64,000 nucleotides of DNA, taken from contig JAGWKL010000002.1 of NCBI GenBank assembly GCA_028865345.1, forward strand, positions 665 to 64,664, given 5' to 3'. Both the position numbers and the translations under genes were made by a program. The stretch comes from Candidatus Omnitrophota bacterium (lineage in GTDB: Bacteria; Omnitrophota; Gorgyraeia; Zapsychrales; Fredricksoniimonadaceae). The notes beneath the pieces were generated by a model. The model worked only from the letters and a program-made list of their open reading frames with translations, was not told the DNA's origin and made no database searches. Of the stretch, positions 1 through 27,457 are shown one piece after another (positions within the stretch are counted from its first letter, which is position 1; each line of letters starts with the position of its first letter).

Positions 1-48
1 TTTTCTATCAAAATAAGTGAAAACAAAAACCCACTAATTAAAAATGTC

Positions 49-1359
49 TTGCTGATATCCTTCGCCTTAGATCTTCTTATTTTGCCATTCACTCCAACAA
101 AATTTTACATACCCAGCATGGCGCCTAAATTGGTATTTCAATTTTGGCCTGTGACTGGCCCCCTCTTATATTATTCAATGATCCAATTTGTCATTGCGGT
201 CCCCTTAGCTTTCTTTTTACTTCAGACTAAATTAAACAAATCCACAGGAACATCAAAAAGAAATTTTCAAATTCTTTTCTATTCTTTATTAATAGGGTTC
301 TTAGGAGGAACCACCGATTACTTTCCTTGTATTAATATACCAATAGCACCGTATGGAAATGCCTTAGTGCCGATTTTTATTTTTGGATTTTTGTATTTAA
401 TTTTCAAACATCAAATAATGGATATTCACATAAGCCTTTCAAGAAGTTTTGTTTACACCATTCTTATATTCTTAATCACTCTTCTATATTTTTTAGTAAC
501 ATATCTAATAAACACCTATCTGAATTTAATTGGTTATCAATCATTTATTTTCTCACTTTTAGCTGCTTCAATTACTGCATTGACTTTTATCCCGCTAAAA
601 GATATTCTTCAGATGTTTATAGATAAACATTTTCTTAAAAAATCTATTAAAGAAATAGAAGAAGAAAATGAATTACTTAAGCAAGAAGTGATGCAATCTG
701 ATCGTATGAAATCCATCGCGATCTTAGCCAGCGGAATGGCTCATGAAATAAAAAACCCTCTGACACCCATTAAAACCTTCAGCGAGCTTCTCCCCTCAAA
801 GCTCGAAGACAAAGAATTCTTGCTCAAATTTTCAAAAATTATAGGCAAAGAAGTTGACCGGATCGATGGATTAGTTCAAGAGCTGCTTAGCTTTGCCAAA
901 CCAAGCGTGCCCCAATTGAAATCAACTAATATCTGCCAACTCATCGAACAAACCCTGGAATTCCTGAATAATGAAATCATCCGCCACAAAATCGTCCTAA
1001 ATACTTTTTTTGAAAACAAAATCATACTTATTGATCTTGACCCTCACCTAATAAAACAAGCTCTTTTAAACATTTTCCTAAACGCCATTGATGCCATGCC
1101 AAATGGCGGCACTCTTAGCGTCATTGCGAGGAACGAAACTACAAAGCAATCTTTTATCATCGAAATCTCCGACACCGGTTGCGGGATTTCACCTAAGGAT
1201 CTGTCTCACATTTTTGATCCGTTCTTCACAAAGAAAGACCACGGCACAGGTTTAGGCCTGTCCATAACCGAGGGGATAATCAAGAATCACAATGGAAAAA
1301 TATTAGTGAAAAGCGAATTGAATAAGGGGACTTCTTTTAGGATTGAACTTCCGGTTTAA
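49..1359 (+). CDS. Sensor histidine kinase with a multi-pass membrane N-terminus, HisKA and HATPase_c
   Basis: H-box MAHEIKNPLTPI, N-box LLNIFLNAIDAM, G-boxes DTGCGI and GTGLGLS. Several hydrophobic helices occupy the first ~190 aa. The frame is open back to base 1 with no stop, so the true start may lie left of the window. Confidence 0.85.
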   Translation: MLISFALDLLILPFTPTKFYIPSMAPKLVFQFWPVTGPLLYYSMIQFVIAVPLAFFLLQTKLNKSTGTSKRNFQILFYSLLIGFLGGTTDYFPCINIPIAPYGNALVPIFIFGFLYLIFKHQIMDIHISLSRSFVYTILIFLITLLYFLVTYLINTYLNLIGYQSFIFSLLAASITALTFIPLKDILQMFIDKHFLKKSIKEIEEENELLKQEVMQSDRMKSIAILASGMAHEIKNPLTPIKTFSELLPSKLEDKEFLLKFSKIIGKEVDRIDGLVQELLSFAKPSVPQLKSTNICQLIEQTLEFLNNEIIRHKIVLNTFFENKIILIDLDPHLIKQALLNIFLNAIDAMPNGGTLSVIARNETTKQSFIIEISDTGCGISPKDLSHIFDPFFTKKDHGTGLGLSITEGIIKNHNGKILVKSELNKGTSFRIELPV

Positions 1360-2543
1360 ATCTCGCCTTTATTATAAAGCTCGACCAAGGCCTCCACGGG
1401 CTTGTGATGGAATTGCTTATTAACACACTGTTGTATTTCTATAATGGCCTCGTCCTTGCTTAATCCTTTACGGTAAGGCCTGTCCGTTGTCATGGCATCA
1501 AAGGTATCGGCCACGGCAATGATCGCTGCGATCATGGGGATATCTTCCCCTTTCAACCCATCCGGATAGCCTTGCCCGTCGTAGCGTTCATGATGGTATT
1601 GAACACCATTTATGACCTCTTCAAAACCGGTCAATGAAGAAAGGATCTCGGCCCCGCGGGTGGTATGGCTTTTCATGATCTCATATTCTTCGGCCGTTAA
1701 TTTGTCCTGCTTGGATAAAATGGCCTCAGGTACGCCGATCTTTCCGATATCATGCAAAAGCCCGGAAATATACAAGTTTTCGAAAAACTTATAAGGAAAA
1801 ACATAAGACTTGGCCGCCTCCATTCGGCGGCCTATGGCCAAAGCATATTTGGTGACACGTTCCGTATGACCGTGTGTGTAGATGTCCTTGGCTTCAATGG
1901 CTGACCCTAAGGCAATGGTTGTCTGGATAAACAAATTGCGGTTACGTTCCGCTTCTTTCTTAAGACCCTCAAATAATTGGGCATTGCGGATGGCAATGGC
2001 CACATCGGAGGCCAAAGCTGAAAAGAAATTCAATTCTTCCTGATCGAAACGGGCACCGTCCTGCTTTTCTCCGAGCAACAAAATAGCCATCAGCATATGC
2101 TGGTAATAAGCAGGCACGCAGGCCACGGCATTGAGCTTGGGTAATTGTTCACTGACATTGTGCAAAAGCTGCTTGGTGCCGTTGCCGTTGGAAATGACGC
2201 TTTCTTTCCAGAGAAGCTTATTAATGTCTTCAGCGACGATGGCATTGCGGTTTTCAAAGATATATTTATATTCTTTCTGGATAAAAAGTTTTATCAAAGG
2301 ATTGGTCTTGTTGAAGCGGATCAAGCCCTCGGGAATGCGTTCGCCTATACCTCCTCGGGAAATAGACAAAACATAGGAATCCCTGTCCGGATTATAAAGG
2401 ATCATGCCGGCATGCTGGATACGGACTTTTTGGACAAGGGAGCGGACAATGAGCTTGATCAATAAGCGGTGGTCATGGATCAAAACCATGCCTTTAGAGG
2501 CGGATTCCAATTCTCGCTTATAATCAATCTTGGTGGGAGGCAT
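1356..2543 (-). CDS. GAF-domain HD-GYP protein (putative c-di-GMP phosphodiesterase)
   Basis: C-terminal HD-GYP signatures HDIGKIGVP and HHERYDGQGYPDGL, with an N-terminal GAF-like region. It is adjacent to the REC gene with a 1-nt gap. Confidence 0.85.
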   Translation of the reverse strand: MPPTKIDYKRELESASKGMVLIHDHRLLIKLIVRSLVQKVRIQHAGMILYNPDRDSYVLSISRGGIGERIPEGLIRFNKTNPLIKLFIQKEYKYIFENRNAIVAEDINKLLWKESVISNGNGTKQLLHNVSEQLPKLNAVACVPAYYQHMLMAILLLGEKQDGARFDQEELNFFSALASDVAIAIRNAQLFEGLKKEAERNRNLFIQTTIALGSAIEAKDIYTHGHTERVTKYALAIGRRMEAAKSYVFPYKFFENLYISGLLHDIGKIGVPEAILSKQDKLTAEEYEIMKSHTTRGAEILSSLTGFEEVINGVQYHHERYDGQGYPDGLKGEDIPMIAAIIAVADTFDAMTTDRPYRKGLSKDEAIIEIQQCVNKQFHHKPVEALVELYNKGEI

Positions 2544-2544
2544 C

Positions 2545-2904
2545 TTAACTGTTTAACTGTGCCAGGACTATCTTTTCAAGCTCTTCGAGAATGAAAGGCT
2601 TATGAATATACCCAAGAACGCCCAAAGCGTTGGCTTCTTTTATAGTTTCCTCATCCTCAACACCGGAAACCATGACGACTTTGACATTTAAATTGGCCTG
2701 GCGGAGCTGGCGCAAAACCTCAATACCTGTGATCTCTTCCATCCTGACATCAAGCAACACCAGATCGGGCTTCTCTTGTGAAATAATCTCCAAAGCCTGA
2801 CGGCCTCCGGATGCCACAAAAACATCGATTTTGCGTTTTTTAAAAAAATTCCGCGCAAATTCCCGGATGTCGGATTCATCATCAACGATCAATAATTTTG
2901 CCAT
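2545..2904 (-). CDS. Single-domain response regulator (REC only, CheY-like)
   Basis: LIVDDE start, phospho-acceptor context DLVLLDVRM, conserved K in YIHKPF. At 119 aa it has no output domain. Confidence 0.9.
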   Translation of the reverse strand: MAKLLIVDDESDIREFARNFFKKRKIDVFVASGGRQALEIISQEKPDLVLLDVRMEEITGIEVLRQLRQANLNVKVVMVSGVEDEETIKEANALGVLGYIHKPFILEELEKIVLAQLNS

Positions 2905-2926
2905 AATATAAGTTTATCCTAAAACC

Positions 2927-5086
2927 CTACCCTATAGCAATAGGCAAACGCAATTTCATCTGCGTGCCGTGCATATACTTGGAAACCATCTCCACCCTAC
3001 CGCCGTGATTTTCTTCGATTATTTTTCTGATCACATAAAGCCCCAAACCGGTGCCTTTTTTGCTGGAAAGCTTTGTTGTAAAGAACGGAGTAAACATTTT
3101 ACTCATGTCTTCATCTTTAACACCGACACCATTGTCTTCAAAAATGATCTCTACATACCCATCTTCTTTAAAAACCCGCACAATCAAGGTCGGCTGATAA
3201 TCCGGCTCACGTCTCTCGTCTTTTCTTTGCATCATCGCATCATAACCATTATCAATGAGATTAAAAAACACTTCCTGCACCTGCGTAAAATTAGCTTTTA
3301 TTTTTGGAATGGTCGCAACATCATATTCACGGATTATTTTCAACTGCTGCGTTTTGATCTTAAACTGTGTCATTTCCAAGGCGGCTTTAAATACCGCGTC
3401 TACATCAACAGCCGCAAAGCCGGTCTCTCCCTTGCGGGTATATTTCAAAAGCCCCTGAACGATTTCTCCGCCCTGCGTAACATTTTCCTGGACGCGTACA
3501 AGCGCACGCTCCAATTCCGCCATAACTTCTTTTGACTTTTCTGAGGACAACGCCTCTTTTTGATTCAAATGGATCGTATCCAAAGCATCACCGGCAATAA
3601 AACCCAACGCATGAAAACGGTTGTTGATCTGATGCGACAGCCCGTCAGCCATGGTGCCGATGGTGGCCATCTTTTCAGCCTTAAACAACTGCTCTTGGGT
3701 CAATTTCATGTCTTCATAAAACTTAGCATTCTCGATGGCAAGGGCGGTTTGATTGGCCAAAATTCCAAAAACAGAAATATCGTCCTGGGTATAAATTTTC
3801 CCGGATTCTTTTTTGCCCATTACTATGATGGCTATAATGCTACCTTCAATAAAAATGGGCGCAATCAATTCACCATCGAGAGAAGAAATGTCCTCTTCTA
3901 CTTGCCCTAATGTTAAACCCTTAAAGTCTTGGGACTTCTGCTTAAATTCTTCATAAATAACCAAATTCTTATCATCTAACAAATATCGTATTAAAGAAGA
4001 GTTTTCCGAAATTTTATCAAGAAACTGTTTATGACCAGACTTCCTTTTTATTGCACCCAGAAAATACTGTTTCTTTTCTTTATCATGAATATAAATCGAT
4101 GCGTGTTCAATTTGTATGGCATGTGTCAACACATATACAATCATATTTAACAACTTTTTTAAATCCTTTATTTTACCCATTCCAGCAGATGCTTGGCGTA
4201 AAGTAGCCTGATAACGACGCTGTTCTTGTAACAATTTGTCTTCGGCTTGTTTTTGTACATAAAGATAAATAAATGGGCCTAATGTTGCAAATAATGCCAT
4301 TAAGCCTATGGGCAACAACCAAGCCCCTTTCCCCAAAAACTTAAAACCTATCCATACAGGAATACCTAAAACAAAAGAATAAACAGCAATAAAAATAGCT
4401 GTATTGGATATAGCCACTCGTATATCCATAAGCCTATAACGAACAATGGCATAAGCAGAAATTGTTAAAGATATCAAAATCGCCACTACACCTAGTGGAT
4501 AAAAAGAGAAACCATAATTAACAAAAAAATCAGTAGACGCCAAACAATAAACAAAAAATGCGATTAACAAGAATGTAAGTTGACTTCCCAAAACTCCTTG
4601 CCATCTAATAAGAAAGCCTTTTTGTAAAAGCTGAAAAAAACACATTCCCATAAGCGTAAAAAGATATAATAAGAATAAAGGGTGTAAAATTCCAGCCTTT
4701 GGATAGTACCCCCAATAAAAATGATTTACTCCATTAATTAACAAATTGGTGGGAAGTAATATTATAAAAAAAAGACTCACAAAATAAGCCTTTTTAGTAA
4801 GACGCCAAAAATTTCGCGAATCAACAAAAGCTGTAAAATAATGTAAATAAGTAGCAGGTATCAACACTATTCCAATATGCCCAATCCTAGCAATATTCTT
4901 TGCTAATTCTAAATTGTTAGTATTGAATAAAAAGAACCAACTAAATTGCCACCAAAATGTAACAACTGAATTAAATAAAAAACCTAGGCGGATAGACCGA
5001 TTTCCCTTGCTTTTCAAATAAACAAAGGAACCAAGCAATAAGAAGAGAATAGCAGAAATTAAAGGAAGGAGAGAATATCTACTCAA
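2927..5086 (-). CDS. Sensor histidine kinase: multi-TM N-terminus, GAF-like region, HisKA, HATPase_c
   Basis: About 280 aa of hydrophobic helices, then a GAF-like segment (IYIHDKEKKQYFL ... IVMGKK). H-box LSHQINNRFHAL, N-box FFNLIDNGYDAM, G-box GTGLGLYV. Confidence 0.85.
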   Translation of the reverse strand: MSRYSLLPLISAILFLLLGSFVYLKSKGNRSIRLGFLFNSVVTFWWQFSWFFLFNTNNLELAKNIARIGHIGIVLIPATYLHYFTAFVDSRNFWRLTKKAYFVSLFFIILLPTNLLINGVNHFYWGYYPKAGILHPLFLLYLFTLMGMCFFQLLQKGFLIRWQGVLGSQLTFLLIAFFVYCLASTDFFVNYGFSFYPLGVVAILISLTISAYAIVRYRLMDIRVAISNTAIFIAVYSFVLGIPVWIGFKFLGKGAWLLPIGLMALFATLGPFIYLYVQKQAEDKLLQEQRRYQATLRQASAGMGKIKDLKKLLNMIVYVLTHAIQIEHASIYIHDKEKKQYFLGAIKRKSGHKQFLDKISENSSLIRYLLDDKNLVIYEEFKQKSQDFKGLTLGQVEEDISSLDGELIAPIFIEGSIIAIIVMGKKESGKIYTQDDISVFGILANQTALAIENAKFYEDMKLTQEQLFKAEKMATIGTMADGLSHQINNRFHALGFIAGDALDTIHLNQKEALSSEKSKEVMAELERALVRVQENVTQGGEIVQGLLKYTRKGETGFAAVDVDAVFKAALEMTQFKIKTQQLKIIREYDVATIPKIKANFTQVQEVFFNLIDNGYDAMMQRKDERREPDYQPTLIVRVFKEDGYVEIIFEDNGVGVKDEDMSKMFTPFFTTKLSSKKGTGLGLYVIRKIIEENHGGRVEMVSKYMHGTQMKLRLPIAIG

Positions 5087-5492
5087 AGTAAATATGATTA
5101 GTAATAACCTTTTTGATCCCTTCAGGGAGCCGAAGAATTGACCCCTTATTATTCACAAAAATAAGTGTTTCGCCTCCAATACTAACAACTTCACCTGATT
5201 GTTTATTAAGATAAATAAACATCATTTCGAAACTGGATTTCTTTATATTACGGTTTTGTACTCTTAGTAAAATACGATCAAACGCATGAATCTGTTTTTT
5301 ATATTCATTCCAGGCATGTTTTGTGACCAAAGTTATATTATTAAATATTTCTTGATAATTTTCTACAGTAGTAAAATAGAGCTCTCTGCATATCCCCTGC
5401 CACTCGAAATATCGAGAAAAATAGACAGTCCCGTACATATTAATATCTTTTAAAGTAACAATAAATTCATACTCAAATGCGTCCTGATTCAT
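5079..5492 (-). CDS. Hotdog-fold (4HBT/YbgC-like) acyl thioesterase
   Basis: At 137 aa the size and the N-terminal pattern (VTLKDINMYGTVYFSRYFEW) are typical of 4HBT thioesterases. It overlaps the ACP gene by 4 nt and the HK gene by 8 nt. Confidence 0.65.
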   Translation of the reverse strand: MNQDAFEYEFIVTLKDINMYGTVYFSRYFEWQGICRELYFTTVENYQEIFNNITLVTKHAWNEYKKQIHAFDRILLRVQNRNIKKSSFEMMFIYLNKQSGEVVSIGGETLIFVNNKGSILRLPEGIKKVITNHIYFE

Positions 5493-5719
5493 AGATTCTT
5501 TGAATTAAGATAATTAATTACATCTTTAACTGTTTTTAATCTTCCAATTTCTTCTTCGCCTATTTTTATATTAAATTTATCTTCAATATTTAATACTAAT
5601 TCAACAATATCCAATGAATCTGCTCCTAAATCTTCAAATTTTGAGCAGTCCTTTAAATCTTCCCTTTTAACTCCTAGAGTGTCAGCTATTATAGTCTTTA
5701 CTATATCTATATTAGTCAT
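5489..5719 (-). CDS. Acyl carrier protein (stand-alone)
   Basis: 76 aa with the phosphopantetheine attachment motif GADSLDIVELV. Confidence 0.85.
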   Translation of the reverse strand: MTNIDIVKTIIADTLGVKREDLKDCSKFEDLGADSLDIVELVLNIEDKFNIKIGEEEIGRLKTVKDVINYLNSKNL

Positions 5720-5739
5720 ACCCCTCTAAAATAATATTT

Positions 5740-7014
5740 TCAGAACTTATACGTCAAACTCACCAACCCGATATTTATAAACTCACTATATTTCCCATCC
5801 ACCGTACCGGCGCTGCCGGCCGTCGACTTGGCAACTGAGTTGATAATGTTCCGTGTATCATAAAAAAGGATTGAATAGGCCACATCAAGTGTCAGGCGTT
5901 TAGTGATATCATAACCAAAACCTGTGGTATAACCGTTGGAATTGCTGTCCGGTATCCTCGGGTTAAAGGTGGCATCTGGGATAACCATTTCATGATGGTA
6001 ATAACCTAACCTTACACGAAAACGATCGTTGACATTATATTGGGTACCGATGGATTCAGACCATGCGGAATGCCAATCTGCGGGGGTGGGAGCAGCGAAA
6101 CCTAAAGTATTAAGGGTTGCACTGCCGTTGATGTTGATCGTCTGGTATTTCGTGCTGGACCAATCCACCCATGCCACATCAAGGTTAACCGTCCATTTCT
6201 TTGTAGGTTTGAAGCTATATCCTGCCACCACACTTTGAGGTAAAACCGACTTCTCGCTAACATTAGACACATAGGATGAAAAACCATAAGCAGTGGGATT
6301 AGCCCCGTTAATGCTCATTTTCCCCCGGTAATTGTGATTGATACGGCTGCGGTAGATCAAACCGATTTGATTTTTGTCATTGATTTTATACAGGGTCGCT
6401 ATACGGTATCCCCAAGCATCATCACCACCTTTAAGCTCGGCAATACCGATTGATCCGCCGTAACCATTAAGCGCAAAACTTTCATCCGCCTTTGATTCAT
6501 CGTTGTCCACGCTTGCGGCTATGGACCATTGCGGGGTCACTTGATACGAAAACGCCAGGGAATTATCAATGTCTGTAATGCTGGCCTGGGTTGTTGCATA
6601 CTCCAAAGGACTGTTAGGCCCCCAATTAGTGGCAGTGCCCCAATAAGAACCTGAACCAAAACCAATGCTTAATTTATTATTGACAGGCAAAACAGCGTAA
6701 AAATTGGGAATATTGAATTCATTGTTTTGCATGTGCACAGTATTTCCGTTTGGCTGTACCATATGGCCTCTGGGCGCAATAAGAGCATCTCCTACGGAAA
6801 TTTCCGGCCTGGTCATTTGATTCATACCGGCTGGGTTGTAGTACATGGCCGCAGGCGTATCCGCTTCACCGACAAAAGCCGAACCCATACCCATTGCACC
6901 AGCGTCGGGAACCTCTATATTATAGGCCCCGGAACCTGTAGCAAACGCACTCTGTCCCCAGGAAGTCATCAAAAACGCACAAAAAACGATGATGAATATA
7001 CGGAATAATGACAT
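5740..7014 (-). CDS. FadL/OmpP1/TodX-family outer-membrane hydrophobic-compound channel
   Basis: Signal peptide ending in SAFA. N-terminal hatch-like segment GAMGMGSAFVGEADTPAAMYYNPAGM. Alternating beta-strand pattern and a C-terminal YKF. Confidence 0.75.
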   Translation of the reverse strand: MSLFRIFIIVFCAFLMTSWGQSAFATGSGAYNIEVPDAGAMGMGSAFVGEADTPAAMYYNPAGMNQMTRPEISVGDALIAPRGHMVQPNGNTVHMQNNEFNIPNFYAVLPVNNKLSIGFGSGSYWGTATNWGPNSPLEYATTQASITDIDNSLAFSYQVTPQWSIAASVDNDESKADESFALNGYGGSIGIAELKGGDDAWGYRIATLYKINDKNQIGLIYRSRINHNYRGKMSINGANPTAYGFSSYVSNVSEKSVLPQSVVAGYSFKPTKKWTVNLDVAWVDWSSTKYQTININGSATLNTLGFAAPTPADWHSAWSESIGTQYNVNDRFRVRLGYYHHEMVIPDATFNPRIPDSNSNGYTTGFGYDITKRLTLDVAYSILFYDTRNIINSVAKSTAGSAGTVDGKYSEFINIGLVSLTYKF

Positions 7015-7153
7015 TTTATCCCTCCATTATTAAAGGGTTTACAATACCCGCATTTTGCGGAAACAACATAATATGGATGAACACATTGAAATTATACTTC
7101 GTCGAAGGCTCGACGGGAAGGGAAAACAGAAATATTTTTGATTAAAGCTCAAA

Positions 7154-7522
7154 TTATAGAATGGCCTCAAAAGCATTCTTCAGATGTTGAATTTGAGCCA
7201 ATCCTGTTTTGTCGCGGATGATGGAAACCACATCAAATCGTGAAGGAATTTCCAAAGACCCGTATTTGTATTTCAGATAAAGCGCGGCCAATTGGGAAAG
7301 CTTGCGGATTTTCCAGGAAGTCACGGCCTCATAAGGCTGGCCTTGATCCAGGCTTTGGCGGGTCTTGACTTCGATAAAACAAATGGTTTTACCATCTTTG
7401 GCGATTAAATCGATTTCGCCCAATTTGCTGCGGAAGTTTTCCTCCAATATGCGGTAGCCTTGGTCTAGCAAATATTGCCGGGCCAGGGACTCACCATAGA
7501 CTCCCAAGGTTTTATTGGACAT
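7154..7522 (-). CDS. yraN: YraN-family (UPF0102) endonuclease-like protein
   Basis: 122 aa. GESLARQYLLDQGYRILEENFRSKLGEIDLIAKDG...FIEVKTR matches the UPF0102 pattern. Confidence 0.85.
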   Translation of the reverse strand: MSNKTLGVYGESLARQYLLDQGYRILEENFRSKLGEIDLIAKDGKTICFIEVKTRQSLDQGQPYEAVTSWKIRKLSQLAALYLKYKYGSLEIPSRFDVVSIIRDKTGLAQIQHLKNAFEAIL

Positions 7523-7561
7523 GAAGGAAGCTTAACAAATATATGATTATTAGTCAACTAT

Positions 7562-7584
7562 AATATTGACTTATAGTCAATATT
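7562..7584. promoter_or_regulatory. Perfect 9-bp inverted repeat AATATTGAC-N5-GTCAATATT, a candidate operator upstream of yraN
   Basis: Read directly. A third GTCAA half-site lies at 7553-7557. The repeat overlaps -35-like TTGACT hexamers on the minus strand. Confidence 0.4.
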
Positions 7585-7701
7585 AACCGCGCAACTGCCG
7601 AAGAGCATGCTGAAAAACAAGCCAATAGTAGAACATTAGAAGAAGAAGGACAAGGACAACGATGACACCGGACCAGGAGAATTTATTTTTCATAAGACGC
7701 T

Positions 7702-8724
7702 TTAAGGAGACGGCGTAACCATCTGTTTCAGACACTCAACCCATAGAGGATGAGCATTCAGACTTTCGACCAGCTGCCAATGCTCTCCCCCGTGTTCTAA
7801 AAAAAGTTTTTTATATTCTACACCTATTTCAACGCTGGTCTCAAGACAATCCGCCACAAAGGCCGGAGAAAAAGTCAGCACCTTTTTAATGCCGCGCCCT
7901 GCCAGTTGCTTGATGACCTCATCCGTGTACGGCTTGATCCACGGCGTCTTGCCCAACCGCGACTGGAAACAAATCGTATATTCATCTTTTTTGATCCCAA
8001 GCTCCTGGACTAACAGCCGTGTCGTCTCAAAACACTGGGCCCGGTAGCAATATTGATTTTTGCCGTGATAAGTCGCGCAACAATCCCCCAATTTGCAATA
8101 ATCGCCGCAAGACGCTTTGAGGATCTGGCGCTCAGGCAAACCGTGATAACTAAACAGATAATGGTCGAAATTTCCCTGCGCCATATATTTTTTACCGGTC
8201 TGGGCAAAAGCTTTGATAAAAAGCGGGTGGTCAAAAAACCGGCTGATGCATTTGATCTCAGGAACCACCTCCCAATGCTTTACAACATTCATGACATCCT
8301 CTATCGTTGAACCCGTCGAGGAAGAAGCATATTGCGGATACAAAGGAATGATGATCAATTGCTTGAAGCCCTTATTCTCGAAATGCGGCAAAACCGATTG
8401 AATACTCGGGGACTGATATCGCATGGCCAATTTCACCAGGAAATCCCCGCCCAGGGCCTGTTGTAAAAGCCCTTGCAGTTGTTGGCCGTAAACCTTCAGC
8501 GGAGAACCTTCGTTAGTCCACAATTGGCGATACGCTTTGGAGGATTCAGGCGCTCGAAACGGAGCAATGACAAAATTGACAAGTAAAAACCTGCGCCAAA
8601 AAGGGATGTCCATGACGCGCCCATCCATCAGGAACTCACGCAGATATTTACGCACGTCCCCCGTCGAAGGGCTGTCAGGAGTGCCTAAATTAATGATCAA
8701 TACGCCGGTTTTGGGGTTGGACAT
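7702..8724 (-). CDS. hemH: Ferrochelatase
   Basis: MSNPKTGVLIINLGTPDSP start and YPQYASSSTGS motif. The ORF track extends to 8763, but that extension runs into a terminator hairpin. ATG 8724 gives the canonical N-terminus. Confidence 0.9.
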   Translation of the reverse strand: MSNPKTGVLIINLGTPDSPSTGDVRKYLREFLMDGRVMDIPFWRRFLLVNFVIAPFRAPESSKAYRQLWTNEGSPLKVYGQQLQGLLQQALGGDFLVKLAMRYQSPSIQSVLPHFENKGFKQLIIIPLYPQYASSSTGSTIEDVMNVVKHWEVVPEIKCISRFFDHPLFIKAFAQTGKKYMAQGNFDHYLFSYHGLPERQILKASCGDYCKLGDCCATYHGKNQYCYRAQCFETTRLLVQELGIKKDEYTICFQSRLGKTPWIKPYTDEVIKQLAGRGIKKVLTFSPAFVADCLETSVEIGVEYKKLFLEHGGEHWQLVESLNAHPLWVECLKQMVTPSP

Positions 8725-8740
8725 GGCAGGCATTATACTG

Positions 8741-8775
8741 GAAAAAAGAGAAAGAGGACACATTAATGTGTCCCC
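8741..8775 (-). terminator. Rho-independent terminator after the 8797-9111 gene
   Basis: The minus strand reads GGGGACACA-TTAA-TGTGTCCTC followed by TTTCTCTTTTTT. The core is the perfect palindrome GGACACATTAATGTGTCC (8756-8773). Confidence 0.7.
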
Positions 8776-8796
8776 TTTTCCCTTTTACATAAATGC

Positions 8797-9111
8797 TTAC
8801 TTACGGATCATGTCCAACGGCGACGTGACCATATCCAAGGATCCGTCGACAATTTGCTTGGCCATATAAAACGTGCCCTTAAGGACACCGCCGACCAACG
8901 CAAAGGGAAGGAACTTGGCATCTTTTGTCTCCGTCTTGACGTTGCCGCTGATCTGCAAAGGTGCGGTGATCACATCTTTAACGCCACCCTGAAACTTTGA
9001 CACAGTATCAGCAAAAGACGGTACGCTTAAACCCCACACCACTGCCAAAGCAATAAGAAAAGAGACCATGCGTTTCATAAGGCACCTCCTTCTTAAGGGG
9101 CCAGACCGCAC
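8797..9111 (-). CDS. Small secreted protein of unknown function
   Basis: Signal peptide (MVSFLIALAVVWGLSVPSFA). The mature part is Gly/Val-rich and loosely resembles small exosortase-associated periplasmic proteins, from memory only. Confidence 0.5.
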   Translation of the reverse strand: MRSGPLRRRCLMKRMVSFLIALAVVWGLSVPSFADTVSKFQGGVKDVITAPLQISGNVKTETKDAKFLPFALVGGVLKGTFYMAKQIVDGSLDMVTSPLDMIRK

Positions 9112-9183
9112 TCTCCCAATTCAAGTATGTCACATAAAAATCGGATATGTAAGTGCGAAAAGGCCTATCCCGGAAAACGGTTC

Positions 9184-10263
9184 CTACCACTCCAGCGCGC
9201 CGCCGGTCTGGTATTCGGTAACGCGGGTCTCGAAGAAATTCTTTTCCTTCTTAAGGTCGATGATTTCGCTCATCCAGGGAAAAGGATTGCTGCTCTTATA
9301 TTGCACAGGCAGACGCAATTTTTCAAGACGGCGGTCCGCGATATACTGCACATACTCGCGCAGCATGGCCGTGTTGAGCCCCAAGACCCCGCGGGGCAGG
9401 CATTCCTGGGCATAGGAACACTCTAATTCAACCGCTTTTTTAATGCGTTCGACCAGATGCTCCTTGAACTCAGAGGTCCAGCAATAAGGGTTCTCATCGA
9501 TGATGGTGTTGATAAGCTCAATTCCGAAATTCATGTGGATGCTCTCATCGCGCAGAATGTATTGGATCTGCTCGCAGGTGCCGGGCATGCGGTTCTGACG
9601 GCCGAAAGACAACATGGTCACAAAACCGCTATAAAAGAAAATACCTTCCGTAACCACATAGAAAGCCACCAGGTTATCCAAAAATTTCTGCAAGCCGGCC
9701 GGGGTGGCCAAATCCACCGTGGTGTCTACAATCCCGTCGGTGCAGCTCATTGAAAATTCATCTTTTGCATAAATTTCCTGATTCTCGCGGTACATATTGA
9801 AAATTTCCGTCTCATCCAGGGAAAGAGATTCCACAATGTACTGAAAGGTGTGCGCATGCACAGCTTCCTCAAAAGCCTGGCGCAACAAATACTGGCGGCA
9901 TTCCGGATTGTCCACCATCTTGTATATGGACAGCACGATATTATTGCCCACCAGGGTCTCAGCCGTCGAGAAAAAGCCCAGGTTACGCTTGATCACGTGG
10001 CGCTCGTCCTCTGTAAAAGCATTGGGATTCTTCCATTGCTCGATGTCGCGCTGCATGGAAACCTCAGTCGGCATCCAGGTATTGGCGCAGCCGTCTAAGT
10101 AAAAATGCCAGGCCCATTTGTATTTGATGGGCACCAGCTGGTTGACGTCGACGGTACGGTTATTGAGGATAATGCGTTTGTTATCGGCGGAAACGCGATC
10201 GCGGGTCATGCGCAGGCCGCCGGAGCATTCAGCTTGAGGATTGGTTTGGGGGGTTTCTGGCAT
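9184..10263 (-). CDS. nrdB: Ribonucleotide reductase small subunit (R2), apparently the class Ic type
   Basis: Metal-ligand motifs [25 protein letters not shown] and RDESIH. Phe occupies the position four residues after the first His, where class Ia proteins carry the radical Tyr. Confidence 0.9.
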
Positions 10264-10283
10264 GTTAAAGACCTCCTAAAAAT

Positions 10284-13200
10284 TTACTGACAGGATTCGC
10301 AGTCCTGCACAGGTTCGGCGGCCGGTTTGGGGGCCGGCGAATCAACCACCCTGCCTTTTTCATCCCGCTGGCGCTGGCCTACCACATTGCCGTATTTATT
10401 GATATTCAAGGTGCTTTTTTCAATGCGGGTGGCACCCATGGAACGCAGATAATACGTCGTCTTCAAGCCCTTTTCCCAGGCAAACATGTACATATCGCTG
10501 ATCTTCTTACCGCTGGGCTTGGCCTGGTACAGATTCAAAGACTGCCCCATGTCGATCCATTTTTGACGGCGGGAGGCCGCCTCTATGATCCATTCATAAT
10601 CGATTTCAAAGGCCGTCGCATATTTGGCCTTCAGGGCTGCGGGAATGCGGGTGATCTCCTGCACACTGCCGTCGAAATATTTCAGGTCATCGATCATTTC
10701 CTGGTCCCAAATGCCCAATTTCTTGAGGTCTTCGACCAGGCATTCATTGATGACCGTAAATTCACCTGACAGGTTGCTTTTGACAAAAACATTCTTATAC
10801 ATAGGCTCGATGGACTGGGTGACGCCGGTGATGTTGCCGATCGTGGCCGTCGGCGCAATGGCCATGACCAGGCTGTTGCGCAGTCCATCCCGCTTGATGG
10901 CGGCACGCAGCGGTGACCAATCCATACGCGCTGAAGTGTCCATGGTCAAATAACCGCCGCGCTCTTTTTCCAAAAGCCCGATGGTATCAATGGGCAAAAG
11001 GCCCCTGTCCCATTTGGAACCTTTATAGCTGCAATAGCTCCCCCGCTCGCGAGCCAATTCCACTGACGCCTGCAAGGCATAGTAAGAAACCGCCTCCATA
11101 CTCTCATCGGCAAAATCGACCGCTTCCTGGGACGCATAACTGTAATTAAGCGCGTACAAAGCGTCCTGAAAACCCATGATCCCCATCCCCACAGGACGAT
11201 GGCTCTGGTTGGCGGCCTTGGATTCTATGGTGGGATAATAATTGATGTCAATGACGTTATCCAGCATGCGCACCGCAGTAGCAATGGTTTGCCGGAGTTT
11301 ATTGGCATCGAGCCCCTTGTCCGTGACGTGGACGGCAAGGTTGATGGACCCCAAATTGCATACCGCAGTCTCGTCCTTGGATGTATTCAACAAAATTTCC
11401 GTGCACAAATTGGAACTATGCACCACACCGGCGTGATCCTGGGGAGAGCGTATATTCGAAGGATCCTTCCAGGTCATCCACGGATGGCCGGTCTCAAAGA
11501 CCATGCTTAAAGCTTTACGCCACAGCTGCACGGCGGAAATGGTCCTGAAATTCTTGATCTTGCCCTCCCGGGCCATCTGTTCATACGCCTCATAGCGCGC
11601 CTCAAAGGCCTGGCCGTAAATATGGTGCAGATCCGGACATTCCGACGGTGTAAAGAGCGTCCAGTCCGCGTTGGCCTTGACCCTTTTCATAAAAAGATCC
11701 GGTACCCAGACGGCCGTATGCATGTCATGCGTGCGGCGGCGTTCATCGCCGGTGTTCTTGCGCAACTCCAGAAATTCTTCGATGTCCAAATGCCAGGCTT
11801 CCAGATAAGCGCACATGGCGCCCTGGCGCTTGCCGCCCTGGTTGACCGCCAAGGCGGTATCGTTGGCAACCTTCAAGAACGGGATGACGCCCTGGCTCTT
11901 GCCGTTGGTGCCTTTGATGCGGCTGCCCATGCCGCGCACATTGGTCCAGTCATTGCCCAATCCCCCACTCCACTTGGAAAGCATGGCATCGTCCTGGATG
12001 CATTTGAAAATGTGGAACAGGTCATCTTCGACCGTTGTCAAAAAGCAGGACGACAATTGGGGATGGCGGGTGCCTGCGTTAAACAGCGTCGGGGTGGATG
12101 ACATGAAACGGAAAGTGGAAAGGATGTTATAAAACTCGACGGCCTTCTGGTTCTTCTGCTCACCTTCGTTGACGGCCAAACCCATCGCCACCCGCATCCA
12201 GAAAATCTGGGGCAATTCGATGCGGCGGTCTTCCCAATGGATAAAATAACGGTCATACACCGTCTGCAGCCCCATATAGCGGAAAATAAAATCGCGTTCA
12301 GGGACAAGGGCCTTGCCCAAGGCCTTTAAATCAAAAAGTTTCAAGGCAGAGTCCAATAATTCATGCTTTACACCCAGATTGATATAGGTGTTTAAATATT
12401 CAGGATATTCCGCGCGCATCCGCTCAAAGGAAACATCCTGACCCAGCGCTTCCTGATAAGCCATCAAAAGCAGCAAACGCGCAGCCACAAACCCGTAATT
12501 AGGTTCTTTCTCGATAAAGCTGCGGGCAGCCAGGATATTGGCCTGGGACAACTGGCGCTCTGTCATGCCATTGAAATAATTTTTGACAGCTTCCTTAAAA
12601 AGCTTTTCCACTGAAACATCGGCCAGCCCTTTGCAACAGGTCTCAAACCTGAAACGCACCTCATCCAGATCAATGGGACGCTCAAGCCCGCCTTCGCCTT
12701 TAAGGACCAGGTTTTTGACCCATTCAATGGATTCTTCCACCTGAACACCGGAGCGATTACGCCGGACCTTGGCTCTTTCTTCTCTATATATAATATACCG
12801 CTTGGCCACTTCATGATAACCGGCGGCCATGATCACTTTTTCCGCAATGTCCTGCACTTCTTCAATATGGATGGATTTGCCCTCCGGCCAACGGGTGCGG
12901 ATCTCGGAGACAGCCTTCTCGCAAAGCTCCTGGGCTTTTTCGATCAGGATTTCATTATAAATACCTTTGTTTTGGGCGATCAGGGCCTTGGCAATGGCCA
13001 GGGCGATCTTTTCCTGCTTGAAAGAAACCACCTTGCCGTCGCGCTTGATCACTGAATATAATTCAAATAATTTGCGCCGTTCGGCATGATAGCGACGGTA
13101 ACTGGCATAACGTTCCGCTGCTTCCTTATAGCCGTTTTCGTACAACTGGCGGATCACCTCATCCTGGATCTCCTCGACTGTCAGGAAAGGCCGCTTGACC

Positions 13201-13412
13201 CCGCGTTCTTTCAAGACCGCCACCACGCAATCCGTCACTTCTTGCGCTTTTTTCATCTCTTCTTGCGTTAATTCAGACTCCCGGGGAAGACCGATTTGTT
13301 CCTTGAAGGAATTTGCGATGGCATGGGTGATGCGGTTGGGGATAAATTCAATGATTTGACCGTTGCGCTTTTGGACTCTGATGTCGAAATTGGCGGCAGT
13401 TTCCGGCGGCAT
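10284..13412 (-). CDS. nrdA: Ribonucleotide reductase large subunit (R1) with two N-terminal ATP-cone domains
   Basis: Two ATP-cone starts (VQKRNGQIIEF, VIKRDGKVVSF). Catalytic core motifs NLCTEI, PTATIG and SCFL. C-terminal redox pair CESCQ. Confidence 0.95.
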   Translation of the reverse strand: MPPETAANFDIRVQKRNGQIIEFIPNRITHAIANSFKEQIGLPRESELTQEEMKKAQEVTDCVVAVLKERGVKRPFLTVEEIQDEVIRQLYENGYKEAAERYASYRRYHAERRKLFELYSVIKRDGKVVSFKQEKIALAIAKALIAQNKGIYNEILIEKAQELCEKAVSEIRTRWPEGKSIHIEEVQDIAEKVIMAAGYHEVAKRYIIYREERAKVRRNRSGVQVEESIEWVKNLVLKGEGGLERPIDLDEVRFRFETCCKGLADVSVEKLFKEAVKNYFNGMTERQLSQANILAARSFIEKEPNYGFVAARLLLLMAYQEALGQDVSFERMRAEYPEYLNTYINLGVKHELLDSALKLFDLKALGKALVPERDFIFRYMGLQTVYDRYFIHWEDRRIELPQIFWMRVAMGLAVNEGEQKNQKAVEFYNILSTFRFMSSTPTLFNAGTRHPQLSSCFLTTVEDDLFHIFKCIQDDAMLSKWSGGLGNDWTNVRGMGSRIKGTNGKSQGVIPFLKVANDTALAVNQGGKRQGAMCAYLEAWHLDIEEFLELRKNTGDERRRTHDMHTAVWVPDLFMKRVKANADWTLFTPSECPDLHHIYGQAFEARYEAYEQMAREGKIKNFRTISAVQLWRKALSMVFETGHPWMTWKDPSNIRSPQDHAGVVHSSNLCTEILLNTSKDETAVCNLGSINLAVHVTDKGLDANKLRQTIATAVRMLDNVIDINYYPTIESKAANQSHRPVGMGIMGFQDALYALNYSYASQEAVDFADESMEAVSYYALQASVELARERGSYCSYKGSKWDRGLLPIDTIGLLEKERGGYLTMDTSARMDWSPLRAAIKRDGLRNSLVMAIAPTATIGNITGVTQSIEPMYKNVFVKSNLSGEFTVINECLVEDLKKLGIWDQEMIDDLKYFDGSVQEITRIPAALKAKYATAFEIDYEWIIEAASRRQKWIDMGQSLNLYQAKPSGKKISDMYMFAWEKGLKTTYYLRSMGATRIEKSTLNINKYGNVVGQRQRDEKGRVVDSPAPKPAAEPVQDCESCQ

Positions 13413-13447
13413 GCTATGTTTCCCTCCTAATGTGTTGAATCAAGAAT

Positions 13448-13517
13448 CATACTATAGGTATGGGGCACTAACTGACAGTAATACTACATATAGTATTTAA
13501 TAAAAAAGAGAAGTCAA
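13448..13517 (-). promoter_or_regulatory. Candidate nrdA promoter with two NrdR-box-like palindromes
   Basis: On the minus strand, -35 TTGACT (13512-13517), a 16-nt spacer, then -10 TACTAT (13490-13495). Box 2, ATACTACATATAGTAT (13481-13496), matches 13/16 positions of the NrdR consensus acaCwAtATaTwGtgt and overlaps the -10. Box 1, CATACTATAGGTATG (13448-13462), is centred ~33 bp away. Confidence 0.5.
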
Positions 13518-13543
13518 CGCTTTTTTTAGAATTTTTTCCAATT

Positions 13544-14158
13544 TTATCTCTTTGCGGCATTGAAACGCTTCTCGACTTCCTGCCAGTTGACCACGTTCCA
13601 AAAAGCCGCAATGTAATCAGGACGGCGGTTTTGGTATTGCAGGTAGTAGGCATGTTCCCAGACATCAATGCCCACGACGGGAGTTTTTCCTTCCATTAAC
13701 GGGCTGTCTTGATTGGCCGTCGAAGAAACTTCCAATTGACCGGGCTTGGAAACTGTCAGCCACGCCCAGCCGCTGCCGAAACGGGACGTTGCCGCCTGGG
13801 CGAATTTTTCTTTGAAAGCGTCGAAAGAACCGAAGGTCTGGTTGATCGCCGCGGCGATATTGCCCGACGGCACCCCGCCGGCCTTGGAGCCGATGATGGT
13901 CCAGAAAAACGTGTGGTTGGCATGGCCGCCGCCGTTGTTGCGCACCACTGTGCGGATGTCTTCCGGCACGGCATTCATATTGGAAATCAAATCCTCGACG
14001 GACTTGCTTTCCAAATCTGTTTTCCCCTTGATGGCATTGTTGACATTATTAATATACGCCTGGTGGTGCTTGGTGTGATGGATTTCCATGGTCGCGCGAT
14101 CGATATGCGGCTCCAGGGCATTATACGGGTAAGCTAACGGGGGTAATGTGTAAGCCAT
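13544..14158 (-). CDS. sodA: Superoxide dismutase (Fe/Mn family, Mn-type signatures)
   Basis: HHTKHH and [29 protein letters not shown] and NQDSP resemble Mn-type discriminators. Confidence 0.9.
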
Positions 14159-27453: not shown

Positions 27454-27457
27454 AGGT

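Follow-up and report, generated by a model that had tools for sequence, protein, structure and literature searches.

Do six head-to-tail minus-strand genes, which bring a FadL-type channel, an ACP and a thioesterase (TE) together with a histidine kinase, a receiver (REC), and a GAF-HD-GYP phosphodiesterase, form a circuit that makes and senses a lipid signal? Such a circuit, parallel to the Xanthomonas Rpf/DSF system, was proposed in an earlier note on the window, i.e., the 64,000-nucleotide stretch of Candidatus Omnitrophota DNA analyzed here. Taken as a whole, that interpretation was partly supported: the link between biosynthesis and signaling stood, while the six-gene order as a unit and the orphan status of the ACP did not. 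All six open reading frames are present, with overlaps or gaps of at most 22 nt, and their domain calls were upheld in Pfam and NCBIfam.

Table 1. Genes, domains, and other features of the module and its surroundings in the window.
Feature	Position (nt)	Strand	Details
Putative promoter region of the module	7091-7115	-	direct reading of the sequence
FadL-family protein gene	5740-7014	-	424 aa
ACP gene	5489-5719	-	76 aa
TE gene	5079-5492	-	137 aa
Kinase gene	2927-5086	-	719 aa, TTG start
7TM sensor of the kinase	4382-5086	-	residues 1-235
Other parts of the kinase			GAF, ~residues 308-453; H-box His485; HATPase_c, residues 601-716
REC gene	2545-2904	-	119 aa
GAF-HD-GYP gene	1356-2543	-	395 aa
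HK2, second HisKA_7TM kinase	1-1359	+	convergent; 5' end lost at window edge
Variable block 1	3801-5860	.	ACP, TE, and kinase residues 1 to ~400 (7TM, linker, most of GAF)
Variable block 2	10-1100	.	sensor and DHp part of HK2

Gaps of 20, 22, and 1 nt separate the FadL/ACP, kinase/REC, and REC/HD-GYP genes, respectively, while the ACP/TE genes share a 4-nt ATGA overlap and the TE/kinase genes overlap by 8 nt. A sequence scan revealed no terminator-like sites at any of the six-gene junctions. The 146-nt intergenic region ahead of the module is the same as in L002, a near-identical Omnitrophota genome, save for one position. A consensus TATAAT is located at 7091-7096, with the perfect palindrome CGTCGAgcctTCGACG immediately upstream, at 7100-7115, and a GGAGGG ribosome-binding site is found at 7020-7025. 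Since a consensus promoter scan did not list the 7091-7115 region, we only infer its promoter function from the sequence.

The enzyme described in the earlier note as a hotdog thioesterase does have the hotdog fold (4HBT_2, PF13279 in Pfam), but its assignment can be corrected to a narrower type. In the PDB, its sequence matched 5vpj, 2w3x, 4i4j, and 2xem (E = 1e-11 to 1e-8), and its AF2 model (pLDDT 86.7) gave Foldseek TM scores of 0.82 to 0.89 to the same entries. All of these structures, the nearest solved ones by either sequence or fold, belong to enediyne ACP-polyene thioesterases. Residues N18, Y28, and R36, invariant across the TE family, are aligned to N19, Y29, and R37 of CalE7, an enzyme in which catalytic roles were reportedly assigned by Kotaka et al. 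in 2009. Sequence and predicted structure place the TE among enediyne thioesterases of the CalE7/DynE7/SgcE10/EspE7 type, which act on carrier-protein thioesters. Its substrate could alternatively be acyl-CoA instead of acyl-ACP; most proteobacterial TE/kinase pairs lack a neighboring ACP gene.

The genomic neighborhood of the TE was assessed in two directions. The forward search, in species genomes that were mostly proteobacterial, yielded 80 TE loci, of which 76 were informative and 4 uninformative. A 7TM kinase adjoins the TE in 75 of the 76, the remaining one being a PKS locus; in their 7TM domain, the adjacent kinases match the one in the window (E ~1e-25 to 1e-53), and their orientation varies. 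When the 7TM domain alone was used as a query in the reverse search, a TE was found directly upstream in 60 of 72 informative metagenome loci (57 by script and 3 by inspection), at distances of -11 to +119 nt; in about 12 of the 72, the close 7TM relative comes without a TE. No other gene families were conserved around the pair, and in Proteobacteria the TE and the kinase alone are conserved together. All six genes were found again in GCA_028866185.1, and because of this recurrence and of the TE/kinase adjacency in both searches, the arrangement is, on comparative grounds, not due to chance. Yet the six-gene order is not a conserved unit: within the module, the FadL and HD-GYP genes are confined to the window's close clade, FadL is missing from most TE-kinase loci, and L143 retains kinase-REC-HD-GYP without TE, ACP, or FadL. 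A functional link between the biosynthetic and signaling halves is supported by the TE and the 7TM sensor, which are conserved together across phyla whichever of them is used as the query; lack of co-conservation, named at the outset as grounds for abandoning the proposal, therefore does not apply to the TE/ACP-kinase link. The conserved core, as traced across bacterial phyla by homology, is the TE plus the 7TM sensor domain of the kinase. In this pairing, a thioesterase that would release a lipid is joined by a seven-helix membrane kinase resembling a receptor; no description of such a TE/7TM-kinase system was found in the literature searched, in agreement with the initial supposition.

The kinase contains HisKA_7TM, GAF, and HATPase_c domains (Pfam), and direct reading shows an intact H-box (SH485QINN). 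Its sensor domain gave a confident 7TM model with GPCR-like topology. The invariant sensor residues (W46, Q47, W50, Y128, P129, K130, H135, D186, N190, Y191, and Y196) fall, according to the model and positive-inside reasoning, at periplasmic helix ends and loops. In short proteobacterial forms of the kinase, the H-box directly continues from TM7.

The FadL-family protein is an OMPP1/FadL/TodX outer-membrane channel with a signal peptide and a hatch NPA motif. It matched Toluene_X (PF03349, 194 bits, E = 3.9e-57; Pfam) as well as FadL, TodX, TbuX, and CymD in the PDB, with NPA aligned, and its 75 bits are far below the 585 cut-off of the E. coli FadL equivalog (NCBIfam). The discrete ACP carries the phosphopantetheine Ser35 in GADSLD (DSL motif intact by direct reading) and matched PP-binding (PF00550; Pfam) and the AcpP equivalog TIGR00517 (79.6 vs the cut-off of 70.45; NCBIfam). 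In at least 14 metagenome loci, an ACP gene immediately precedes that of the TE. This ACP, once taken for an orphan, is not truly so: in relatives, a FabF-type synthase gene often accompanies the ACP beside the TE/kinase genes, and the window also encodes a FabF-like KAS (28.6 kb) and a second ACP, both within 28.3-29.8 kb.

The stand-alone REC (Response_reg PF00072, E = 6e-30) has residues D8/D9, D52, S80, and K102 intact by direct reading, and in many relatives the kinase is likewise followed by a REC. The last protein combines GAF and HD_5 (PF13487 and PF01966 matches in Pfam); its HD and HHERYDGQGYP (HHExxDGxGYP) motifs are intact and aligned to those of PmGH and V-cGAP3. Its PDB matches are 5z7c (V-cGAP3, 4.5e-38) and 4mcw (PmGH, 5.6e-30); with V-cGAP3 the best PDB match here, HD-GYP enzymes may prefer cGAMP. 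The GAF of this protein is paralogous to that of the kinase (E = 2e-17), and the whole protein is identical (100%) to its L002 counterpart. The adjacency of the two genes is what suggests a link from REC to HD-GYP.

A seventh partner, absent from the earlier note, is the convergent kinase HK2, whose stop overlaps that of the HD-GYP gene by 4 nt. It carries HisKA and HATPase_c (Pfam), and its full-length L002 homologue has PF16927. HK2 is kept beside the module in L002, L006, L009, and L143; its 7TM domain is a distant paralogue without the TE-linked motifs.

The c-di-GMP link recurs outside the window, since relatives carry REC-FabF, REC-TE, PilZ-TE, and 7TM-HD-GYP fusions. PilZ is present in 34 of the 49 longest TE representatives, and 7TM-HD-GYP proteins come directly after a PilZ-TE. 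These architectures support a tie of the lipid enzymes to the phosphorelay and to c-di-GMP.

Comparison with L002 revealed a mosaic. Block 1 is 71.7% identical at the nucleotide level, compared to 99.8% upstream (5881-15480) and 98.1% downstream (1101-3800), and its GC content is 0.32 vs 0.44-0.49. Its dS is saturated (1.3-2.0 vs 0.006-0.09), with a dN/dS of 0.12-0.14. The ACP, which lies inside the block, is 61.6% identical to the L002 allele, while the FadL-family protein, outside the variable cassette, is 99.8% identical to its counterpart. The TE is 77-78% identical to TEs on other contigs vs 69% to that of the near-identical sister genome. Block 2 is 72.3% identical to L002, with a GC content of 0.33 in both alleles, and the HK2 protein is 79% identical to its counterpart. 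Block 1 is thus a candidate specificity cassette resembling agr/comQXP, as seen in one allele pair (n = 1). No similarly sharp block was found in the close Duganella pairs compared, and the TE-sensor correlation (r = 0.89) was no better than that of the TE and the kinase core (r = 0.87).

From the gene content, homologies, adjacency statistics, fusions, and mosaic, all directly observed, we infer the following scheme with all its biochemical steps, its ligand, the way in which transport runs, and whether regulation is positive or negative. In it, the module is a lipid-signal circuit whose invariant core couples a CalE7-type TE to a GPCR-like 7TM sensor domain, a reading toward which our confidence is evenly balanced. 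The dedicated ACP would carry an acyl chain, probably beta-keto or beta-hydroxy acyl, which in relatives would be built by the FabF-type synthase encoded next door and in the window may come from the FabF-like KAS or from general fatty-acid synthesis. Cleavage of the chain from the ACP by the cytoplasmic TE would set free a hydrophobic molecule, either a fatty or beta-keto acid or, following decarboxylation, a methyl ketone or alkene. This product would partition into membranes, with the FadL-family channel as its outer-membrane route (outward, inward, or both), and would bind at the periplasmic end of the 7TM bundle, in a pocket formed by invariant polar and aromatic residues. The signal would pass from 7TM through GAF to the kinase core (His485) and the single-domain REC (Asp52), which would modulate the GAF-HD-GYP phosphodiesterase and lower c-di-GMP or a related dinucleotide. 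Lipid production may in turn be subject, in relatives, to feedback from phosphorylation (REC-FabF, REC-TE) and from c-di-GMP (PilZ-TE). Together with the ACP and the TE, the kinase's sensor half would form an exchangeable cassette, likely setting signal and receptor specificity.

The same fusions can be read as marking the enzymes as targets of regulation. The 7TM kinase would then monitor a membrane property or an endogenous lipid pool, with no diffusible intercellular signal, and would regulate FabF, ACP, and TE as its outputs, thereby tuning a side branch of fatty-acid synthesis. Such homeostasis would fit the L006 module, which adjoins plsX-fabH-fabD, the direct coupling of TM7 to the H-box, as in intramembrane-sensing kinases, and the proteobacterial pairs, where FadL is absent and ACP mostly absent. 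However, ancient, functional, and sharply bounded ACP/TE/sensor alleles in otherwise identical genomes are unexpected for a housekeeping sensor. The invariant sensor residues are also predicted to face the periplasm, an outer-membrane channel gene heads the operon in the window's clade, and the module is carried on conjugative-element-like islands. We consider lipid homeostasis possible but unlikely.

It appears improbable that the module responds to exogenous lipids of a host, prey, or the environment, which FadL would import, the 7TM kinase detect, and the TE and ACP process or detoxify, with c-di-GMP switching lifestyle. Importing hydrophobic compounds is what FadL-family channels are best known for, and the operon opens with the FadL gene; yet most TE-kinase loci lack FadL, the variable cassette excludes it, the module has no acyl-ACP synthetase or FadD, and the FabF-ACP-TE of relatives indicates synthesis rather than uptake. 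Still more doubtful is a small specialized-metabolite cluster (polyene or enediyne-like) with a pathway-specific two-component regulator. The closest characterized relatives of the TE do serve enediyne PKSE enzymes, and in L071 the gene immediately upstream of a TE family member encodes a 2799-aa synthase that contains ACP, but PKSE or another megasynthase is absent from the window and from 75 of the 76 informative genome loci, and Proteobacteria conserve just the TE and kinase together. That six functionally unrelated genes were packed into one operon, as might happen in compact Omnitrophota genomes and in a window rich in long same-strand gene runs, is scarcely credible and already strongly disfavored by the comparative data, in which the adjacency persists across phyla and in four orientations, whichever way the search was run, and domain fusions occur.

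The favored lipid-signal circuit shares its logic with Xanthomonas Rpf/DSF, where acyl-ACP intermediates are the source of a fatty-acid-derived signal and the enzyme producing it has thioesterase activity (PMC5941067). There, too, a membrane sensor kinase detects the signal and an HD-GYP phosphodiesterase is the output, but homology is limited to the HD-GYP domain, so that the proposed parallel is one of logic. Unlike the hotdog TE, RpfF belongs to the crotonases; RpfC, a hybrid kinase, includes REC and HPt, and its membrane sensor is unrelated; and RpfG fuses REC to HD-GYP, two domains that the module encodes separately, with GAF joined to its HD-GYP. Rpf also lacks ACP, FabF, and FadL.

The hydroxyketone systems CqsA/CqsS (CAI-1) and LqsA/LqsS use a polytopic kinase that senses a hydrophobic ketone-type autoinducer within its membrane domain, and this domain joins DHp directly, as in the short proteobacterial forms of the module kinase. 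The synthase, however, is a PLP-dependent acyl-CoA transferase, and the six-helix sensor is unrelated to HisKA_7TM. To our knowledge, these operons contain neither a thioesterase nor a c-di-GMP enzyme.

CalE7, DynE7, SgcE10, and EspE7 are homologous to the TE, which matches them best in both sequence and fold and has its Asn, Tyr, and Arg at the same positions. They release carrier-protein-bound products: CalE7 works on an ACP-tethered product (PMC3107222), and PKSE/TE pairs yield a decarboxylated heptaene (PMC9992847). Unlike these PKSE-paired enzymes, the module has no PKSE but a discrete ACP, with a FabF-type synthase in relatives; a sensor kinase is the conserved neighbor of its TE, and PilZ/REC fusions are not a feature of enediyne TEs. 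The activity of Shewanella YbgC, a 4HBT-type hotdog thioesterase, alters c-di-GMP levels (PMC5479800), and FadL in Sinorhizobium modulates long-chain AHL signaling (PMC9938287), likewise joining a FadL channel to a hydrophobic quorum signal. In neither case are the genes grouped in a module with a dedicated sensor, and the mechanisms are not known to be related to that of the module studied here. BtsS, a LytS-type 7TM histidine kinase, also uses a seven-helix membrane domain as a ligand-binding receptor (PMC10653868), but belongs to another 7TM family, binds pyruvate, and has no coupled biosynthetic enzyme. The agr (agrBDCA) and comQXPA systems differ in that their signals are peptides of Gram-positive bacteria, the module cassette being known from two alleles only. 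As in block 1, their signal-making genes and sensor half are hypervariable while the kinase core and regulator are conserved, and divergence between groups reaches a similar level (PMC4408185, PMC10482373), comQ being 65-70% identical between groups whose housekeeping genes are ~100% identical (PMC4408185).

The proteins of the six-gene module belong to known families, namely CalE7-type thioesterases, HisKA_7TM kinases, FadL/TodX channels, HD-GYP proteins, and AcpP-like acyl carrier proteins (ACPs). Their six minus-strand open reading frames lie exactly where the earlier note had placed them, and all of its domain calls were upheld by Pfam and NCBIfam. In gene order, 20 nt separate FadL from ACP, the thioesterase gene overlaps the ACP gene by 4 nt (ATGA) and the kinase gene by 8 nt, and REC and HD-GYP follow after gaps of 22 nt and 1 nt, respectively. 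A promoter/terminator scan, whose yield was at or below shuffle expectation, detected no terminator-like site at any of these junctions. Rfam found one tRNA in the whole window and nothing in the module region; PADLOC returned no defence-system match for the FadL-family protein, the ACP, and the thioesterase and only weak generic matches for the other three proteins. The FadL gene is preceded by a perfect palindrome, CGTCGAgcctTCGACG, that directly adjoins a consensus TATAAT (window positions 7091-7115); together, they may represent an operator and promoter. A small hairpin, CCGCaaaatGCGG, is present in the leader (7048-7060). The intergenic region matches that of L002, a locus in the near-identical Omnitrophota genome GCA_028866185.1, except at one position. 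A second kinase of the HisKA_7TM family (HK2) is part of the conserved neighbourhood of the module.

Genes of the module with their neighbour HK2, and segments of the locus compared with L002
Feature	Window position	Strand	Assignment or remark	Nucleotide identity to L002	Protein identity to L002
FadL-family protein	5740-7014	minus	PF03349		99.8%
ACP	5489-5719	minus	Pfam/NCBIfam		61.6%
Thioesterase	5079-5492	minus	Pfam/NCBIfam		68.6%
Kinase, TTG start	2927-5086	minus	HisKA_7TM, GAF, HATPase_c		residues 1-400, about 50-85% per 40-residue bin; residues 401-719, 97-100%
REC (receiver) protein	2545-2904	minus	Pfam/NCBIfam		99.2%
GAF-HD-GYP protein	1356-2543	minus	Pfam/NCBIfam		100%
HK2	1-1359	plus	cut by window edge; converges on HD-GYP gene		
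YraN					100%
Upstream flank	5881-15480			99.8%	
Block 1: ACP, thioesterase, kinase residues 1 to about 400	3801-5880			71.7%	
Kinase core, REC, HD-GYP	1101-3800			98.1%	
Block 2: HK2 sensor and DHp	10-1100			72.3%	

The FadL-family protein matches the OMPP1/FadL/TodX family (PF03349) at 194 bits, and its hatch NPA motif aligns with that of E. coli FadL. Against the NCBIfam equivalog NF007988, it scored 75.2 bits (cut-off, 585), and it is by these scores a member of the family, not an orthologue of E. coli FadL. The ACP passes TIGR00517 (79.6 versus 70.45 bits) and has the DSL serine at position 35, with a score far weaker than that of the canonical-looking second ACP (ACP2) of the related locus L003 (117 bits). 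The kinase belongs to HisKA_7TM (PF16927, 44.3 bits versus a threshold of 28.6) and carries HATPase_c (72.6 bits) and an H-box histidine, H485, in SHQINN. The REC is a separate 119-aa protein in which motif residues D8/D9, D52, S80, and K102 are all present. The HD-GYP motifs LLHDIGK and HHERYDGQGYP align to PmGH (4mcw) and V-cGAP3 (5z7c), so that the protein has the HD and HHExxDGxGYP signatures of a predicted HD-GYP phosphodiesterase.

Close homologues of the thioesterase in Omnitrophota occur in three kinds of context. In one of these, the same six genes, together with HK2, were found in L002 and in L009, and to this extent the gene order described earlier is conserved. As a conserved unit, however, the set gives way to a smaller and far more widely spread one. 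In a forward test, one genome per species was scanned with a thioesterase profile, yielding 278 relatives and 80 retained loci, mostly from Oxalobacteraceae, Comamonadaceae, Alcanivorax, Porticoccaceae, Methylobacter, Gallionellaceae, and one Bacteriovoracia MAG. The thioesterase adjoins a kinase matching the 7TM domain of the window kinase in 75 of the 80 loci (E about 1e-25 to 1e-53), the two genes being divergent in 51, convergent in 11, and co-directional in 13. Four more loci were uninformative (contig ends), and only L071 departs from the pattern, a 2799-aa ACP-containing synthase being found there instead. When the neighbours of proteobacterial thioesterase/kinase pairs were clustered, no further conserved gene family emerged. 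The reverse test, a metagenome scan with the alignment of the 7TM domain alone, gave 72 informative loci; a thioesterase gene lies directly upstream on the same strand in 60 (57 found by script and 3 by inspection), with gaps of −11 to +119 nt and 26 overlaps. Taken together, the two tests show that the conserved unit is the thioesterase plus this 7TM sensor, and the link that the earlier note had proposed between biosynthetic and signalling genes is borne out by their co-conservation.

Other genes join this core in various combinations. An ACP gene directly precedes the thioesterase gene in at least 14 loci, and eight have the order FabF-ACP-thioesterase-kinase; the FabF-type synthase of these relatives passes the fabF equivalog cut-off and has the Cys-His-His triad. 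FadL and HD-GYP were found only among close relatives of the window. Locus L143 shares the lineage of the kinase core, REC, HD-GYP, and HK2 (core 67% and sensor 41% identical) and has no thioesterase, ACP, or FadL. In L006, the arrangement is plsX-fabH-fabD-FadL-HK2-thioesterase-kinase-PilZ; the module (L006:3836-8080) directly follows yceD, plsX, fabH, and fabD, where fabG-acpP-fabF usually sit, and its FadL product is shorter (340 aa). The arrangement FabF-FadL-ACP-thioesterase-kinase-REC(-ACP2) occurs on four distinct Omnitrophota contigs (L003-L005, L008, L173, and L175), where the stretch from FadL to REC is flanked by TraU/TraF/TraH-like genes on one side and by a gene for a tyrosine integrase on the other. 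This suggests that the module is carried on, or controls, an integrative conjugative element.

The window also contains a second lipid-type cluster on the minus strand (25338-29848). Its FabF-like ketoacyl synthase (28601-29848) scores above the fabF equivalog cut-off and is 57-64% identical to the ketoacyl synthases of thioesterase-kinase modules elsewhere; a divergent ACP (28348-28593), an alpha/beta hydrolase, a HAD phosphatase, and a class-III aminotransferase follow. The cluster could supply the ACP of the module or make a separate aminolipid. At 14813-15217 (plus), a second, 4HBT_2 thioesterase stands back to back with an AMP-binding acyl-activating enzyme (15218-16555, minus), a pair also present in L002. 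A 1180-aa protein with UPF0489 as its sole Pfam match (30604-34146) is adjoined by a separate HisKA kinase gene (34086-35276, plus) and a REC gene (35294-35674).

Sequence and predicted structure both place the module thioesterase with the hotdog (4HBT) enzymes of the CalE7/DynE7/SgcE10 enediyne type. Its closest solved relatives by phmmer are 5vpj, CalE7 (2w3x), SgcE10 (4i4j, deposited as an “ACP-polyene thioesterase”), and DynE7 (E = 1e-11 to 1e-8). An AF2 model (pLDDT 86.7) matched the same enzymes and EspE7 with Foldseek TM scores of 0.82-0.89, ahead of YbgC-type enzymes, and the top 35 matches were all enediyne thioesterases except for two 4k00 chains (ranks 29 and 32). Residues N18, Y28, and R36, invariant in 18 family members, align to Asn19, Tyr29, and Arg37 of CalE7, which Kotaka et al. 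reportedly described in 2009 as replacing the usual acidic catalytic residue and supporting both hydrolysis and decarboxylation. PDB titles lend these roles partial support: CalE7 is deposited as a “bifunctional hotdog fold thioesterase,” and 9ccr is an EspE7 R35A mutant. Enediyne thioesterases act on carrier-protein-tethered products (PMC3107222), and such an enzyme with its iterative polyketide synthase (PKSE) yields a decarboxylated heptaene (PMC9992847). No megasynthase that could be a cognate PKSE was found in the window or in 75 of the 76 informative loci. In L071 (1531-10372, a Vulcanimicrobiota MAG), the family member directly follows the megasynthase gene; this is the classical PKSE-like layout and may be ancestral for the family.

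A word-indexed protein search with the 7TM domain of the kinase returned 17 short fragments only, which served mainly to seed the alignment for AF2. The resulting model is confident (pLDDT 92.5) and has seven helices, the fourth and fifth of which are joined via a beta hairpin. Residues kept across phyla are W46-Q47-x2-W50, Y128-P129-K130-A131, H135, D186, N190-Y191-G192, and Y196-P197. All appear to lie at periplasmic helix ends or loops, given that the kinase core has to be in the cytoplasm and that the loops rich in Lys/Arg (25-30, 88-98, and 155-165) should be inside. In short proteobacterial kinases, helix 7 continues straight into the H-box AHEMRTPL. The 7TM domain of HK2 is only distantly paralogous (19% identity) and lacks the motifs of the thioesterase-linked sensors, so that the latter form a distinct subfamily. 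Close relatives of the 7TM domain also occur as tandem stand-alone proteins of ~340 aa, with neither a kinase domain nor a thioesterase (L113, L114, L117, L125, and L126; also L120 and L122).

In relatives, the enzymes and the sensor are fused to regulatory domains: REC-FabF in L123 and L146, REC-thioesterase in L093, and PilZ-thioesterase in L104, L127, L158, and L161. A thioesterase profile search of 1.84 billion representatives recovered 349 family proteins at E ≤ 1e-10; among the best 150 of these, 49 are at least 215 aa long, 34 of them with an N-terminal PilZ, 2 with a REC, and 1 with an ACP domain. A fusion of this 7TM domain to HD-GYP, with no kinase, occurs in L148 and L158, directly downstream of a thioesterase gene (split in L148, PilZ-thioesterase in L158). 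The connection to c-di-GMP proposed for the window thus recurs in several independent forms, and comparative genomics gives good support both to it and to the functional link between thioesterase and kinase. If the signalling system proposed below is correct, REC-FabF and PilZ-thioesterase would show that a receiver domain and c-di-GMP can act directly on fatty-acid enzymes. Some kinases of ~990 aa (L127:1174-4143 and L129:5233-8205) carry HisKA_7TM twice in tandem, ahead of GAF and HATPase_c; a PilZ-thioesterase precedes them, and REC and a second ACP come after.

As can be seen from the table, the near identity of the window and L002 is interrupted by two divergent blocks. In block 1, dS is 1.3-2.0, compared to 0.006-0.09 outside, and dN/dS is 0.12-0.14; the two sequences are, by these measures, old, functional alleles. 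GC content is 0.32 in both alleles versus 0.44-0.49 in the flanks, and the low GC of the ACP, thioesterase, and 7TM sequences is also seen in L003, L006, L008, and L009. The window thioesterase is 77-78% identical to those on other contigs and 69% identical to that of the sister genome, and the window allele was found at 100% identity in an independent assembly (L001). Because an identical HD-GYP protein occurs on two contigs only, a third allele is not known. The HK2 block has a GC content of 0.33 and ~72% identity, spans L002:14122-16146, and has its left boundary outside the window; its divergence means that both 7TM kinases at the locus vary together. A repeat search found no direct or inverted repeats bounding block 1, no comparably sharp mosaic block was found among the proteobacterial pairs searched, Duganella pairs included, and a mirror-tree style correlation did not discriminate the sensor from the kinase core. 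The hypervariable region of agr comprises agrB-agrD-agrC (PMC10482373), and comQ is 65-70% identical between groups in which gyrA is about 100% identical (PMC4408185). Block 1, in one allele pair only, follows the same pattern as agr and comQXP, with variable, putatively signal-making genes and sensor beside a conserved kinase core and regulator.

The best-supported model, whose biochemistry we infer throughout, has six steps leading from the ACP through the thioesterase, 7TM kinase, and REC to HD-GYP. The dedicated ACP would be loaded, in relatives by the FabF encoded beside it, and the cytoplasmic CalE7-type thioesterase would free a hydrophobic product. This product would pass through the membranes, with the FadL-family channel assisting at the outer one, and then bind to the 7TM bundle on its periplasmic side. 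The kinase would then signal to REC, which would modulate the GAF-HD-GYP enzyme; the thioesterase and FabF of relatives may in turn receive feedback from c-di-GMP and phosphorylation. The chief alternative is homeostasis, with a loop that has the lipid enzymes as its outputs and sends no signal out of the cell. The fusions are compatible with such a loop and with communication alike. Communication is favoured by the cassette polymorphism, by the conserved residues that apparently face the periplasm, by the presence of a channel for the outer membrane, and by the location of modules on islands resembling conjugative elements. Sensing of an exogenous lipid, for which FadL would be the entry, is less likely, since the core dispenses with FadL and a synthase is present in relatives. 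A polyene or enediyne gene cluster, despite the type of thioesterase, is less likely because a PKSE is absent. Chance co-location of the six genes is less likely as well.

Beyond the six-step model, we tentatively put forward a broader proposal, which we consider possible but somewhat more apt to fail than to hold: the thioesterase and HisKA_7TM pair may define a family of systems, new and widespread among Gram-negative bacteria (Omnitrophota, Proteobacteria, and Bdellovibrionota), through which cells signal to each other with lipids. A diffusible lipid or ketone would be made by the thioesterase, assisted by ACP and FabF in the loci that have them, and read by a GPCR-like seven-helix receptor; the loop would close via c-di-GMP (PilZ-thioesterase and 7TM-HD-GYP) or phosphorylation (REC-FabF and REC-thioesterase), and specificity groups would arise by cassette exchange, partly on conjugative elements. 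Genera that can be cultured carry the two-gene core (Duganella, Massilia, Collimonas, Polaromonas, Variovorax, and Alcanivorax), so the idea is directly testable, though the Omnitrophota lineage of the window is uncultured. If correct, it would place a new synthase and receptor pair beside AHL, DSF, CAI-1/LAI-1, PQS, and dialkylresorcinols, provide a ligand class for the uncharacterised HisKA_7TM sensor family, and offer possibly the first agr-like specificity cassettes for a Gram-negative lipid signal. The literature searched, with incomplete coverage, contained no description of the thioesterase/HisKA_7TM pairing, PilZ-4HBT fusions, or REC-FabF.

The earlier note had likened the module to the Rpf/DSF system of Xanthomonas. 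The parallel stands for the logic of the circuit, while membership was rejected, as three defining Rpf features are absent. Pfam detected no ECH/crotonase domain of the RpfF kind in the six proteins, leaving the hotdog thioesterase as the sole candidate synthase. The kinase consists of HisKA_7TM, GAF, and HATPase_c only and lacks the REC and HPt of the RpfC hybrid architecture. In place of the RpfG-type REC-HD-GYP fusion, the REC is encoded separately, and HD-GYP has an N-terminal GAF. The module is thus a member of neither Rpf/DSF nor CqsA/CqsS, and resembles both in its logic.
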